Source: a virus
Lineage: Duplodnaviria > Caudoviricetes
DNA length: 64,000 nt
Direction: 5' to 3' (one strand)
IMG/VR virus record: IMGVR_UViG_3300011008_000999
Shown here: positions 4,120 through 55,765 of the stretch, in pieces
Numbering within the stretch: the stretch's first letter is position 1
How the letters are laid out: every line of letters begins with the position of its first letter
Translations under genes and position numbers: made by a program
The notes under the pieces: model-generated
Databases searched by the model: none
The model's input: the letters and a program-made list of their open reading frames with translations, nothing else
What the model was told of the DNA's origin: nothing

Positions 4120-5929
4120 TTATGAACCAAATGTAGAATCTTCATCATCGTCTTCCATGTCTTCTTCACGCTTCTTAGCAAATGGGTTAGAAGTAAGAAG
4201 GTTTACATCATAAATAGACTTGATACGAATAATACCATTACGATTCAATCTATCAATCATGAAGCAAGTACCTGTAGGAAAGTTAGTTGCTGATGATACA
4301 ATTGAATCTACATCAATAGCTGAAGATGGATTGATCTTAGACGTATCAAATGCATCTAAGAACAGCTGTGCTTCTTCCATAGATGACTTGAACATAAACT
4401 TAGTTGTAATGTAGTTTGCAATACCCTTAGGGAAGTGAGAAATACCCTGAGACGCAAGTACAGTAGCAACATTAAGTGAACGACCAAGAACAAGGAATCT
4501 ATCTATAATAGCACCCATCTCCTTGTTACCAAATAATAAGTGCGCCTCATCACAAATAAGTGTTGTAGGAATCTTATTATCACCAGAAAGAATATCAAGT
4601 AACTTTGTAGTTATAATATAAAGAATAGCTGATGTAAATCTTTCATTTGCATCATAGTCTTCAGGTTTCTTAGAATAATCAGGAAGACTAAGACCATGTA
4701 ATGAAATAACCATAGAATCTGTAGATGAAAGTACAAGTGGCTTTACATTTGTTTCACGAGTAAAGAGTAACTTACCATACTTGTTATCTTCAAACATCTT
4801 AAGCAATGTACCAACAGTCTGAGCATATTCATTCTGGTTAGCATAAAGATAGTCTGCAACATCCTGCATATCATAATAATCGCCAGTAGTTTTAGCTCTA
4901 GTAACAAAGTCTGTTACAATAGGTGTAATACCAATAATAGTATTTCTTTCAAGCTTACCACACATGATTTCAATAACAGTCATAAGTGTAGCAGTATCAA
5001 TATACTTAATATTACCTTTCTCGTCGATTTTCTTTAAGAATTCGAACGGATTTAAAGCACCTGGACGAATCTTATTGATGTCAATAATACTGATGTTAGG
5101 ATTTACATTATACAACTTATCAAAGTCGTTTTTAGGGTCAATAGCAATAACTCTTTGACCCATACCTAAACAATTTGCTGCAATATTTAATAGTGCAAAT
5201 GTCTTACCTGAACCAGGAGAACCTACTACAATAGTAATATCGATAGGTAAGCCTTTGAAGTTATCTCCAGCTTTTCCCCCGATCCACACCGTGCATGCGA
5301 TTTTCATCGCACACGGCGTTCCATCAAGATTTAATTATTCTCGAGTTACAATTAAACCATTGACTTGTGGCCATTACTACTATTCTCATTACAAGAATTA
5401 TCGACGCTTCGACCACTACTTTTCAGCATTAGTTAAGTAGCTTATTATTCTTCGTCTACAATCTAAATCGACTAATACCTTTCCTCGTTCCAATATATTC
5501 TATCTGTACATATACTTTTAGGTGCCTACTTTAGACTAATTTAGCTTGGATGTACCCGCCTGATAAATCATTCGTACAACATAGTATTTCATAGCCAAGC
5601 ATTTTACTTTACTACACTAAATTATCTGTATACTTCGTAGGTTCGTCAGATTTCGTTATCATTCTCACCATGAGTATTTTATAGACTTCCGGCATATTCT
5701 GCCGACTTTACCGAGCTTCTAACAATTAAAGTTTCCTTATATATTGCTAGTCGAAGATTAAAGAATGTGTTTCAAGTCGTTACTCTATCATTCCACATTT
5801 CGAATATATTAGTTCTCCATACATAACTGTATGTGTTTAGCCTTTGTGTATTTAAGCTAAAAACGAGTCGCACCCTGGCGCATTATTTACCATCTGAGCA
5901 GTTGTAGGACTCCATTTGATAGTACTCAT
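4120..5929 (-). CDS. VirB4/HerA-like P-loop ATPase, two exons (5929-5874 and 5236-4120) split by a group II intron
   Basis: Spliced frame MSTIKWSPTTAQMVNNAPG-TIVVGSPGSGKT; IDPKND; Walker B LICDEAH; LGRSLN..VLASQ. The ORF-track start at 5307 lies inside the intron. Confidence 0.85.
5237..5873 (-). mobile_element. ORF-less group II intron (about 637 nt, bacterial class B-like)
   Basis: 5' GTGCGACTCG; domain V GAACGCCGTGTGCGATGAAAATCGCATGCACGGTGTG; domain VI ending ACCTATCGATAT; candidate EBS1 CTTGGC (5594-5599) pairs with exon end GCCAGG; removal restores the frame. Confidence 0.92.
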
Positions 5930-5932
5930 TTT

Positions 5933-13664: not shown

Positions 13665-14060
13665 TTAATCTTTTACTTCGACTAAAGTGTCGATTGACAA
13701 TGGGTTATTTTGAATAATACCAGGCAAAACGGAAGCATCATTACGCTGAGTACAAAGTATACAATGTATTCCAGCAGATCTTCCAAGCTGAGTAATACTT
13801 TGTATGTTACTAATAATCTCGTCTTTTAAAGCGTCTTCAGCTTTACCTTCAGTAGTTTTAATACCAGACTTACCAGTTAACTCTGCAATCTCATCTACTA
13901 CAATCAATAGACGAGGCATTTCATCTGTATAACATTTATCTACACAGTTCTTATTGACTGGAATCCAATGTTCTCCATCAAGTTGAATTTCAAGTTCTGG
14001 CAATTGAACTTCTACTTTTGCTTTAGCATTTTTACCAGTATCATTTAACATCCATCCCAT
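13665..14060 (-). CDS. FtsK-like ATPase fragment (Walker B part) ending in a 12-aa split-intein IntN (13668-13703)
   Basis: PRLLIVVDEIAEL; QLGRSAGIHCILCTQR; ends IIQNN|PLSIDTLVEVKD, an intein block A pattern with Pro1. Confidence 0.85.
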   Translation of the reverse strand: MGWMLNDTGKNAKAKVEVQLPELEIQLDGEHWIPVNKNCVDKCYTDEMPRLLIVVDEIAELTGKSGIKTTEGKAEDALKDEIISNIQSITQLGRSAGIHCILCTQRNDASVLPGIIQNNPLSIDTLVEVKD

Positions 14061-25891: not shown

Positions 25892-26353
25892 TTATACCTC
25901 CTCAAATTTCTGCTCTTTACGATTATCGATCTCAGCATGCTCACCACTAAAGTCAATAACTGTAGTAGAGTTCATGTTATCGAGATCAATTTCTCCTTCA
26001 AGTTTTACGTCATCAGCAACCTGTGACGTCATTCCACTATAACCTAAATCATCAAGACCACGTTGTTTGAAATATGTCTCTGTAATCCATTTCTGTTGTT
26101 CAAAATAATATTGAACACGAGAAATCTGACCTTGCATCTTAGTTATACCTGCACCTTTATGAGTACCATCTACAGTAGTACCAAGTGTCGAACCAAGAGC
26201 CATCATTGATGCAGTCTGTTCCAAACGTCCAGCAACGATCTAAATACGAGCAGCACAATTATGGGTAAAGATCATTTTCTTATCCATTGTTGTTCCACTC
26301 TTATTTAGATCACCTCCTTTACGTTTAAAAACTTTTTCTAAAATATTTAACAT
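25892..26353 (-). CDS. split-intein IntC (ends THN at 26258) fused to the C-terminal FtsK-like ATPase fragment; in-frame TAG at 26240-26242
   Basis: RBS plus MLNILEKVFKRKGGDLNKSGTTMDKKMIFTHN|CAARI*IVAGRLEQTASMMALG..KGAG..RVQYYF, in frame with ORF 25892-26224. Confidence 0.8.
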
Positions 26354-30527: not shown

Positions 30528-31064
30528 TTAATAACTAATATTATCATATAAGTCGTTGTCATCAAGTTCGTCACCATAGACATGTTCAATTCCAGTGATT
30601 TCTGTCCAACCTTGATTATGAAAAAGTTTTAACAACTCCTCTTTTGTTTTATTTCTAGCTGGACACTCTTCATTCTTAAATGGGAATCCATTATAGTCAA
30701 ATTCAAGTTCAGGACCTTCAGGTGGACAATATCTATCACCAGCATAACCAGGACTAATTACTCTAATATTAGCTCTAACATCTGCTGTAACTGTAATATC
30801 AGTATAATCTATACTTGAAATCTCAAAATCATCAGCATCTTCCATAAGAGAACTAAGAATATCAAATATATCCTCTTCAATGTGATCAATGGAATCGATA
30901 ATCTCATCTATACGCACATCTGGAACATTTTCGGCCCACTTAAGAATAATTCTAATAGTCTGACGACCATGTGAATGATCTGGACCTCTATCGTAATCAT
31001 CATATCTATCCATAGATGAACTATTTGTTTCAAAACAACTGTTTCTAATTTTAAACATGGTCAT
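30528..31064 (-). CDS. FETNSSS-motif family protein
   Basis: N-terminal FKIRNSCFETNSSS. Confidence 0.75.
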   Translation of the reverse strand: MTMFKIRNSCFETNSSSMDRYDDYDRGPDHSHGRQTIRIILKWAENVPDVRIDEIIDSIDHIEEDIFDILSSLMEDADDFEISSIDYTDITVTADVRANIRVISPGYAGDRYCPPEGPELEFDYNGFPFKNEECPARNKTKEELLKLFHNQGWTEITGIEHVYGDELDDNDLYDNISY

Positions 31065-31082
31065 TCCTCCTTATTTATATTT

Positions 31083-31398
31083 TTATATCTCCAATATCTT
31101 ATTCATGTCAATATCTTTTTCATGTTCAATAAATTTTGGATTAATATCATTAAACTGTTTCATAAAGTCAGTTATGTCTTTAGCGTTAATATCTACTAAA
31201 TCCATATTAGTATGATATCCAGTCGTGTTTACTTTCCAAATAATATCTGACATATCTAACTTAAATCTCTCTAAAAAATCTTCTATAGCAAAATCAATAC
31301 CAGGACAAATCATAAATGGACAACGATTACTATGCATAATTAATGATTTTTGCTTCAAATATACAATCAAACACTGGAAATAAATATACAGTTTGCAT
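31083..31398 (-). pseudogene. frameshifted hypothetical gene
   Basis: RBS start MQTVYLFP at 31398 stops near 31330; continuation lies in another frame. Confidence 0.45.
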
Positions 31399-31404
31399 AT
31401 AATA

Positions 31405-31784
31405 CTACTCCTTATATATAGGTTTTCCTAAAAATCCTCCAAATTTAGTTAATACAGTAAATTCATCTGTAGTCCAAAATCTAAATTTTTTGTATTAACT
31501 GCTTTTCCTTCTGGTGATACAGATAAAGTAATATGCGGAATTGGAATAGCTTCATAAAGCTCTCTAAGTTCATCAGATTCACATGAGACTAATTTAACTT
31601 TATATCCTTCATTTACTTCGTCATTTCCGTATCCAGTAACTACAAAAGTAGCCTGCTGACCATATAAATGTTCATGACTTTTAGCAGGCTTAAATTCTGT
31701 TGTTATGTGTTTGAATTCTATATCTTTAGAAAGTTTGCTATCTAATGGACCTTGTACAAAGAATGCTTCATATACTACGCCCAT
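31405..31784 (-). CDS. 2H phosphoesterase-like protein; frameshift in T-run at 31476-31479
   Basis: Two HxT motifs (KHITT, PHITL); adding one T gives ..LDFWTTDEFTVLTKFGGF. Confidence 0.65.
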
Positions 31785-36593: not shown

Positions 36594-36798
36594 AATGAGT
36601 ATCTACTGAAATAAATAAGTCAGTATCATTTAACTCCCAGCTAAATACTATAGCATCAGTTAAATTTAACTCTATTATCTTATCTACAAGATCTGAATAA
36701 GTTCCTTCATATAAAACGGTTTTCTCATCCCAACCATCTACAATAGTAACTTTTCCAATTTTGTTTTTAGTAGTAGCTAAAAACATTTTAAGTATCAT
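36592..36798 (-). CDS. hypothetical protein
   Basis: ORF with RBS. Confidence 0.6.
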   Translation of the reverse strand: MILKMFLATTKNKIGKVTIVDGWDEKTVLYEGTYSDLVDKIIELNLTDAIVFSWELNDTDLFISVDTH

Positions 36799-36811
36799 GA
36801 TAATAATCTCC

Positions 36812-37879
36812 TTAAATAGCTTCTCCTATAGAATTAGTAATATCTATTTTCATCTGCTGACCAATTTCTAATGCACGACTCATAATAGCAATTAACTTAC
36901 TAGGCTGTTCAAAATCACATACATCAGACGTATCTCTAACTATAAATAGTCTAAGTAAGTTATCTTCAAACTCATTAATCATATCCGCAGATCTAAATTG
37001 TTTATACTGTAGTAATAGTGCAGCTATAGTATCAGGTTCCATATCTTTTAACTCAGCTGCAGTTATATTTTTGTTCTTTTCATCTGTATCTGTACTAACT
37101 CCAATTAATACTAAAGCTGACATAAGATGTTTAAACATATTTGTGCATCTTCTACAATATGATGTAAATTGTTCAGTTGTAAATTGAGTAGCATCAGCTC
37201 TACTTAAATTAAGGTTATCATATAACATTAATAAACTGGTTAAACAACCACTACCTTTTTCAAAGAAGAAATTTATATCTTTCGCATAGTTTACTTCTAT
37301 ATGATTATCAGCTGCAAGTACGTTAATACCTTTAATCATTATTTCACAATAATCTATTAGGCTTTTAAGATGATATATTCTAAGTCCTCTTTCTGTAATT
37401 TTTACATCTTCCCAATGTTCAACTTCTGTGGCTCCAGGTACTTTTTGTGTTAAAGCAAACTTTTTTAACCATAAATCTAATTCAGGTGTAAGAGTTCTAA
37501 TATTTTTAGTCAAATTTCGAAATGAGTCTAACTTTCTACTAGTCTCAGAGTCTTCAGTTCCAGGAATTATGAATTGTTTTCCTGCATTAGCTTTATTTGC
37601 TCTAAATTCTTCAGCATATTTAACAATAACATTTTCAAATGCATCTACAGCGCTCATTGCTACAGCCGTACCAGTAAATAAAATAGTTTGCTTAACTTCT
37701 ACTGCTTCTGAATCAACTTTATCATAATCACCTAAAGCTTCTATAGCTTGATTATAATACTGCTGAGCATCTCTAAAATCAGCCACTTTACTATCATCTG
37801 CACCCCATACCTGATATTTAGTTAAATATTTACGTAATAAATCTGCATGCACTTTACCAGGTTCAATTGTAGTTGCCAT
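36812..37879 (-). CDS. hypothetical protein
   Basis: 355-aa ORF with RBS. Confidence 0.8.
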   Translation of the reverse strand: MATTIEPGKVHADLLRKYLTKYQVWGADDSKVADFRDAQQYYNQAIEALGDYDKVDSEAVEVKQTILFTGTAVAMSAVDAFENVIVKYAEEFRANKANAGKQFIIPGTEDSETSRKLDSFRNLTKNIRTLTPELDLWLKKFALTQKVPGATEVEHWEDVKITERGLRIYHLKSLIDYCEIMIKGINVLAADNHIEVNYAKDINFFFEKGSGCLTSLLMLYDNLNLSRADATQFTTEQFTSYCRRCTNMFKHLMSALVLIGVSTDTDEKNKNITAAELKDMEPDTIAALLLQYKQFRSADMINEFEDNLLRLFIVRDTSDVCDFEQPSKLIAIMSRALEIGQQMKIDITNSIGEAI

Positions 37880-48785: not shown

Positions 48786-49214
48786 TTAATTGTAGAGATA
48801 CTCGTATATCTCCAATGCTGACATTTCTTTTTCTTCACCAGCAATTCTAACTTTAATCTTTTCATCCTTGTCAAATTCTCTACCAGTGATCCAAACTTTT
48901 CCTGTCCAATCAGTAGGCTTGTAGTCTGCCATATCATTCAGACCTATTTTCTGCATCTTCTTATTTCGAGAATACATAACAGATCTACCTATTCTCAAAA
49001 TTTCTGCAGCTTCTTGAACTGAGTTAGCAACTGCAACTACACCATTCATTCCTTTAAAAGGATAAAATTCTGTCTGTTTTATATCAACTAACGCAACTGA
49101 TATTTTATTGTTATGTTCAATTTATTTTAGGCACTAGGCCTAAATACAATGGAATATGACATTCCTCAAAGTAACACTATTGTGCGAAATGAGTCCTCGT
49201 TTAGCTGTCTCCAT
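48786..49214 (-). CDS. 12-aa split-intein IntC fused to FtsK-like ATPase fragment (post-Walker A); 24-nt in-frame stop-containing gap at 49119-49142
   Basis: Strong RBS; METAKRGLISHN|SVTLRNVIFHCI[gap]EHNNKISVALVDIKQTEF..EAAEIL..MYSR, in frame with ORF 48786-49049. Confidence 0.8.
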
Positions 49215-49521
49215 TGTAATCATCACCTCCTTTTATAAACTGTTTAGTTTGAGCTATATTTTTACATTGTTTACAACAATACATCTGATAACCTCTTGTA
49301 AAGTTAATGTACTTAGTAGGTTTATTACAAACTAAACATTTCCCTTCATTATTAGATTTTATATATGTATCATAATATTCTTTGCAAGTAATCTGTTCAT
49401 CAAATCTAATATGCGCAGACAGATAATTACCATTTTGAAAAGTCTGATTACATATTAGACATGTCATTGGATTATTTTTTATTTTAGGTACATATTCTTT
49501 TCCACAAATAAGACATTTCAT
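49201..49521 (-). CDS. Zn-finger-only member of the homing endonuclease family
   Basis: CLICGK; CLICNQ..HIR; EGKCLVC..YCCKQC; no nuclease domain. Confidence 0.75.
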   Translation of the reverse strand: MKCLICGKEYVPKIKNNPMTCLICNQTFQNGNYLSAHIRFDEQITCKEYYDTYIKSNNEGKCLVCNKPTKYINFTRGYQMYCCKQCKNIAQTKQFIKGGDDYNGDS

Positions 49522-55408: not shown

Positions 55409-55765
55409 TTACTGCACATAGATCGCGAATTGATGATCTGGTGCATCAGTAGTAATACATTGTACTATTTCAGGATCTATTTTTCTAATAGATTTAATAG
55501 TTGGTCCGTCTTTTGTTCCAACATGTCTACCTTTATACCAATCAAATTCTTGATATATACCTTCAGCATCAATTGTGTACATTTTATCATTTATGAATAC
55601 ATTCCACTGATGCACATTAGAACATTTAACTTTACCATTACTAAATGTAATTTCATACATATTGTAAGATACTTTAGCAGTAGTCTTTTCAATTACTTTA
55701 TGAAACTGTCCATCAGTTCCTAGTACTAAGTCACCTACTTCAACCTCTTCAATAGTTTTCTTCAT
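55409..55765 (-). CDS. stand-alone class 3 intein core (IntM; HINT domain lacking blocks A and G)
   Basis: TIEEVEVGDLVLGTDGQFHKV; YEITFSNGKVKCSNVHQW (block B His plus Trp); VQCITTDAPDHQF (block F Cys); own RBS and stop; no extein. Confidence 0.88.
   Translation of the reverse strand: MKKTIEEVEVGDLVLGTDGQFHKVIEKTTAKVSYNMYEITFSNGKVKCSNVHQWNVFINDKMYTIDAEGIYQEFDWYKGRHVGTKDGPTIKSIRKIDPEIVQCITTDAPDHQFAIYVQ

Follow-up and report, generated by a model that had tools for sequence, protein, structure and literature searches.

How does a conserved ATPase segment come to be preceded by a twelve-residue peptide that holds only the last sequence block of an intein, and where is the rest of that intein encoded? 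The question is raised by positions 49176-49214 of the window, the 64,000-nt stretch of DNA analysed here, which corresponds to G000:47126-111125 (minus strand), where G000 is the parent record, a 331,944-bp phage genome with direct terminal repeats. The observations below make it very likely that the peptide is the C-fragment (IntC) of a natural three-piece, class-3-like split intein with a core of its own.

Insertion site and conservation of the tag

From position 49214, the minus strand encodes METAKRGLISHN, next SVTLRNVIFHCI, and then TAG. Positions 49176-49214 are exactly 13 codons, those of a 12-aa leader and of Ser+1. The leader (49179..49214, minus strand) contains block G only, with Ser at G5, His at G6 and Asn at G7. 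The original prediction, a leader of 12 aa ending in ISHN ahead of SVTLR and skipped by the ORF track, with Ser at G5, agrees with these coordinates and residues and with the 24-codon frame. An open frame of only 24 codons accounts for the absence of the tag from the 50-aa ORF list. About 10 nt upstream of its start is the ribosome-binding site AAGGAGGTG, a strong Shine-Dalgarno sequence (49225..49231, minus strand) located within the 3' end of an upstream Zn-finger ORF (49201..49521, minus strand). This ORF overlaps the tag start; in the relative G002, an endonuclease-like ORF of 382 aa has a C-terminal part that matches it. A genome-wide scan of the coding strand for Shine-Dalgarno-preceded starts with an early H-N/Q-[SCT] motif yielded only this tag and the 26.3-kb tag. 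The tag is not a chance motif.

A short tag of 9-13 aa stands before the same extein in 21 distinct alleles, that of the window included, and mostly ends in GLISHN (GLINHN in two alleles). Two other alleles have an IntC of 33 aa and four are intein-free, and HN|S is present in all 23 intein-bearing alleles. In the intein-free alleles (P0069, L110-L113), ...GSTGGGK runs straight into SVTLR, and this unbroken sequence places the insertion point at the Walker A GK|S. P0069 is a 605-aa database protein in which an unrelated N-terminal part is joined to the intact ATPase segment, possibly by misassembly; L110-L113 confirm the intact junction independently of it. The tag is an authentic IntC that interrupts an FtsK-like ATPase at Walker A GK|S. 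Its initial reading as a block-G-only IntC at the Walker A junction is thus borne out by the intact alleles, which locate the joint.

Four separately encoded pieces of one ATPase

One motor enzyme of this 332-kb phage appears to be built from four separately encoded pieces. Piece 1, the Walker A gene (G000:5009-6301), lies about 41 kb past the window's end and comprises, in order, a membrane N-domain, a 153-aa cis mini-intein at GS|T, TGGGK and a 15-aa Ala-start tail. This tail, the N-fragment (IntN) that closes the piece, is encoded outside the window at G000:6254-6298. In all five genomes examined, the tail after the Walker A GGGK is 9-15 aa long and starts with Ala (G000, G001, G002 and G004) or Ser (G003), never with Cys. 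The cis mini-intein (L021:1781-2239, equivalent to G000:5780-6238) is located five residues ahead of the split intein, starts with Pro and lacks the penultimate His; its last residue is Gln in G000 and G002 and Asn in G001, G003 and G004. Second, diverged copies of the micro-IntN tail occur just after or at the end of adjacent endonuclease genes (G000:7304-7345 and, in reversed orientation, G002 214875-215945).

Piece 2 starts with the tag. The first 12 codons of its extein, from Ser+1 to the candidate take-off codon, Ile, at 49145-49143 (49143..49178, minus strand), are identical to the intein-free allele P0069, and the remaining 110 aa (48786..49118, minus strand) correspond to positions 69-135 of Pfam PF01580, with dN/dS about 0.03-0.1. 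Piece 2 ends without an intein, at the same place as in the intein-free allele, so that its join with piece 3 is probably non-covalent. Piece 3, with Walker B (13665..14060, minus strand), ends in the 12-aa Pro-start micro-IntN of an NN|C intein, and piece 4 (25892..26353, minus strand) has both the first micro-IntC, with the end ..FTHN|C, and a 6-nt candidate stop-hop, ATT-TAG-ATC. The three Walker A intein genes are found at 5.0, 17.6 and 61.9 kb of G000, separated by 11 kb and 44 kb, and the four extein pieces and free cores together are scattered, in permuted order, over about 92 kb.

Another ATPase gene of the window, VirB4-like (window 4120-5307), is interrupted ahead of its Walker A by about 600 nt of group-II-intron-like sequence (window 5300-5930); its G004 counterpart contains a cis intein at GK|T.

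A coding gap downstream of the tag

The reading frame of the tag halts after 24 codons, 12 of them extein, and resumes in frame 24 nt on, with ATT before and after; when the gap is skipped, the sequence of the intact allele P0069 is obtained. This gap (49119..49142, minus strand), a candidate programmed ribosomal bypass, consists of TAG, a hairpin with a 7-bp stem (z -2.66), an A-rich spacer and the landing ATT (49121-49119), and includes three in-frame stops, one of which is TAA. The stem is kept in relatives with different loops, and short gaps are devoid of it. One to three such gaps, at four sites, are present in 20 of the 21 short-tag alleles and in none of the six intein-free or long-IntC alleles, all of these alleles being related and not independent. 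Altogether, this phage and its relatives have 31 gaps of 5-38 nt, in all three frames and piece 4 included. TAG begins 29 of the 31, yet closes just 24 of 263 long frames. Take-off and landing codons are identical in 14 of the 31 gaps and synonymous in 22. Downstream of the gap, the frame is under strong purifying selection (pS 0.52-0.81 against pN 0.03-0.17). Within the limited sensitivity of a comparison of close homologues across five genomes, gaps of this type were seen in this gene only.

The number and size of the gaps vary. Some relatives (L122, L124, L116 and L131 among the gap alleles) have three within 25 codons, and the shortest is 5 nt. The piece 4 gap (window 26237-26242) is a 6-nt TAG-ATC after ATT, with a GTC landing codon in G002; G003 has a 16-nt GTA...GTA gap at this piece and G001 none.

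It is likely, by analogy with known bypassing, that ribosomes cross the 24-nt gap by hopping. Its removal at the RNA level, as a core-less mini-intron or by other editing, would leave the intein reading unaffected and is considered improbable. Group-I-like introns are found about 50 nt downstream in several relatives, and three gaps in series, as in some alleles, would be hard to cross by low-efficiency hopping. However, the window's allele lacks a neighbouring intron, and in no register of its gap would excision at a U|...G group I boundary leave the correct peptide (5 of the 31 gaps allow such a boundary); the frequent synonymy of take-off and landing codons and the predominance of TAG starts also argue against excision. 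One low-depth metatranscriptome contig of a relative, which may be DNA, spans the gap with no joint. Genome-wide recoding of TAG was rejected on account of the TAA inside the window's gap, the many gaps of relatives that are not multiples of three and the lack of a CUA-anticodon tRNA among 41 RNA genes. Sequencing error or a pseudogene was likewise discarded, since hairpin loops differ among recurrences of the gap and purifying selection acts on the frame that follows it.

At G000:144222-171079, a tmRNA is accompanied by 40 predicted tRNAs, among them ones with Leu(AAG), Thr(AGT) and Tyr(ATA) anticodons; none is an amber suppressor. Single in-frame nonsense codons occur at G000:3423, 30348, 34129, 46227, 46704 and 54635, five of which are replaced by Gln or Trp in G002 (e.g. 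in a sigma factor). Unlike the TAG gaps, these six look like point mutations or consensus errors.

A free core gene outside the window

The expectation that the catalytic core is encoded elsewhere proved right. A free HINT gene of 196 aa, core A, is located at G000:17599-18189, outside the window and about 29 kb past its end. Core A starts at the end of block A, contains the His of block B and the Cys of block F, carries an insertion of about 100 aa and stops, with ...YET, right before block G. Its 98 homologues are mostly 193-197 aa long and nearly all end in ...YET; the block B His is conserved in 98 of 99 members of the family and the F4 Cys (Cys186) in 97 of 97. The top 29 structural matches of the core A model (pLDDT 90) are inteins or other HINT domains, the best with a modest Z of 8.4 and an rmsd of 1.8 Å across 96 residues. 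The best structural alignments begin at about target residue 13, past block A.

Standard intein profiles miss these cores. Searches of the genome with the Pfam Intein_splicing and TIGR01445 profiles found nothing, a search of the genome with the 55.4-kb core retrieved only itself, and Foldseek with the core A model gave no match at E<=0.001 and only weak intein matches. Core A itself was weak in a family HMM search (E 3.7) and was afterwards confirmed by other means.

The pairing of core A with the tag is suggested by a shift of the split point. In G004, the core stops ahead of block F and the IntC, 33 aa long, bears block F; the same long IntC is found in L129. Over 20 aa, the F block of the G004 IntC and the C-terminal 20 residues of the G000 core A share 70% identity. 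The split point has shifted, and the segment concerned would identify core A and the tag as partners, an argument taken from a single complete genome, G004, and a short contig, L129. The genes of G004 follow a collinear order, namely piece 1, core A, piece 2, piece 3, a core of the 55.4-kb type, piece 4. A predicted complex of core A with the IntN tail and the IntC points in the same direction, with a score of 0.87 (best control 0.01), a contact agreement of at least 76% and a partner pLDDT of at least 70. The score covers the IntC only, the IntN chain having few confident contacts. Of the solved pairs, 58 of 80 attained this mark, as did 2 of 110 mismatched ones, and likeness to solved inteins may account for a pass.

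Intein class and proposed splicing pathway

In the proposed pathway, three genes would supply the parts: piece 1 with the 15-aa IntN, the free 196-aa core A and piece 2 with the 12-aa IntC, the full length of piece 2 also requiring a ribosome hop of 24 nt after codon 24. The two short tags would dock into core A as beta-strands. Cys186 in block F of core A would then attack the Lys-Ala bond, as in class 3 inteins, and the N-extein would be transferred to Ser+1. Cyclisation of the His-Asn of the tag would bring about release, with GSTGGGK-S rebuilt.

Ala at position 1 and the invariant F4 Cys make class 3 chemistry the most likely, following the route described in PMC7891396. Block B position 12 is Leu in 63 and Phe in 36 of 99 members of the core A family and never Trp, and G5 of the Walker A tag is Ser, or Asn in two alleles, never Thr. 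Since B12 and G5 deviate, leaving one-third of the WCT signature, the intein is class-3-like and not canonical WCT. Among class 3 inteins, 6.1% deviate at the B12 Trp and 4.6% at the G5 Thr, and a T-to-A mutant still spliced (PMC7891396). Nor are blocks A-F fused to the Walker A piece, as they would be in an ordinary atypically split two-piece intein. The original prediction had named a long IntN with these blocks as the sign of such an intein; the IntN of G000 has 15 aa, and tails of 9-15 aa in five genomes argue against a two-piece intein with a long IntN.

The deviation of two of the three WCT residues, together with the association of pieces 2 and 3, which takes place without an intein, could also be accommodated by a non-covalent clasp, or by fragments that only cleave, the ATPase working as separate chains without splicing. 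This seems distinctly improbable because the break separates the P-loop Lys from the Ser, a position at which a bulky domain would abolish binding of ATP. Moreover, the catalytic His and Cys, the His-Asn and Ser+1 are near invariant, and a class 3 split intein without the Trp splices well (PMC7891396). Splicing by three fragments is the preferred reading of the Walker A junction.

Three junctions and three cores

The original prediction left two sources for the core, a 55.4-kb middle fragment (IntM) shared by two junctions or a second core beyond the window. The second holds, as core A, and the Ser at G5, thought to favour weakly a different partner, pointed in the right direction. Two residues of the class 3 signature, Trp and Cys, are present in the 55.4-kb core (55409..55765, minus strand; 118 aa). 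It is assigned to the ATPase's other split intein, the one at NN|C, whose tag in this genome has Thr at G5. In G004 (reversed, about 194560-194590), the C-fragment of the NN|C intein is apparently just 8 aa long and ends in Ser-Asn, not His-Asn.

Three split junctions, two in this ATPase and one in a paralogue, and three free cores are present in all five genomes, so that the count of cores against tags suggested at the outset gives three for three, contrary to sharing. Each of the three junctions of the genome would have its own core. Some cross-binding is conceivable, as both micro-IntN tails of the ATPase are alike (xxxIDxxVEV) and both tags are block G only, but a 55.4-kb core shared by both junctions is most improbable: a dedicated core A in all five genomes leaves it unneeded for the tag, the F block in the 33-aa IntC of G004 resembles core A, not the 55.4-kb core, the core of this latter type sits between pieces 3 and 4 in G004, and the resemblance between the two cores is remote (hhalign probability 14%).

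A third three-piece intein is found outside the window, at GGTG|S of a paralogous FtsK-like ATPase (L022, L105 region; G000:21536-22336, 31058-31552, 36756-37019). It combines an IntN of 16 aa starting with Cys, a free core and an IntC of 41 aa, with the same layout in G001-G004, and the gene also bears group-I-like introns. The free HINT piece at G000:31058-31552, considered as a partner of the Walker A tag, was assigned to this paralogue, which has its own IntN and IntC.

Implications

On balance, the data lean towards a clade that encodes three mutually orthogonal natural three-piece inteins, with end tags of 8-16 aa and a free core acting like a separately supplied protein ligase, in which the split point has shifted during evolution, with a transfer of block F between IntC and core, and the same gene depends on several short natural hops. 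If so, one ATPase would need cis-splicing, two three-way trans-splicing steps and translational bypassing, and would illustrate how far selfish elements can fragment a conserved gene. In the literature searched, three-fragment inteins are otherwise known as engineered constructs only. A natural set with tags of about 12 residues on both exteins and a free core would constitute a ready-made tag-and-ligase tool: both tags could be synthesized, and supply of the core would switch splicing on. Apparently, a single genome provides three sets of this kind. The linked short coding gaps would, in addition, open natural stop-hopping to direct testing.

Comparison with known systems

Three-piece split inteins have been engineered from Ssp and Rma DnaB, Npu DnaE and gp41-1, and a 2023 preprint considered three-fragment inteins not proved in nature (bioRxiv 10.1101/2023.01.30.526203). 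No natural three-piece or tripartite intein came up in a literature search of incomplete coverage. As in the engineered systems, N-, middle and C-fragments of the phage intein would all have to assemble for trans-splicing; in contrast to them, the layout is natural, with fragment genes 11-56 kb apart.

The first natural split class 3 intein to be reported, AceL NrdHF, splices without the Trp (PMC7891396) and shares with the phage intein Ala at position 1, Cys at F4, replacement of the WCT Trp and a phage-like origin. However, it is a two-piece intein with the usual split site and Thr at G5, whereas the phage intein has three pieces, Ser or Asn at G5 and the core insertion of about 100 aa. A very short IntN occurs in atypically split inteins such as PolB16 OarG, 15 aa being the shortest characterised (PMC10189870). 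The phage intein shares this feature, but its IntC is also short (9-13 aa, with an IntN of 9-15 aa) and its middle is a separate gene, instead of one long IntC.

Fractured genes (Dassa et al. 2009; PMC2677866) consist of two halves placed on either side of a single endonuclease gene at the same locus. The phage ATPase resembles them as a phage enzyme gene split by an intein, with free-standing endonuclease-like genes beside the breaks. The three Walker A intein genes, however, lie at 5.0, 17.6 and 61.9 kb and do not flank one endonuclease gene at one locus.

Translational bypassing is known from T4 gene 60 and its homologues (bioRxiv 10.1101/2022.08.31.505936), stop-hops have been made synthetically, and a 2016 review knew of no natural in-frame stop-hop (PMC5009743). 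The phage gaps have in common with T4 gene 60 a take-off codon, an immediate UAG, a take-off stem-loop, an AU-rich spacer and a matched or wobble landing codon, and in several relatives the take-off loop is GNRA, as in bypass of this type. Unlike T4 gene 60, they span only 5-38 nt, at four sites within 25 codons and one in piece 4. The window's gap has no mini-Shine-Dalgarno before the landing codon (an A-rich spacer, no GAG) and just 24 codons upstream, and the host gene is FtsK-like, whereas the T4 bypass belongs to a MobA cassette in a topoisomerase gene. By this analogy, the gap would work like the T4 gene 60 bypass without being a member of it.
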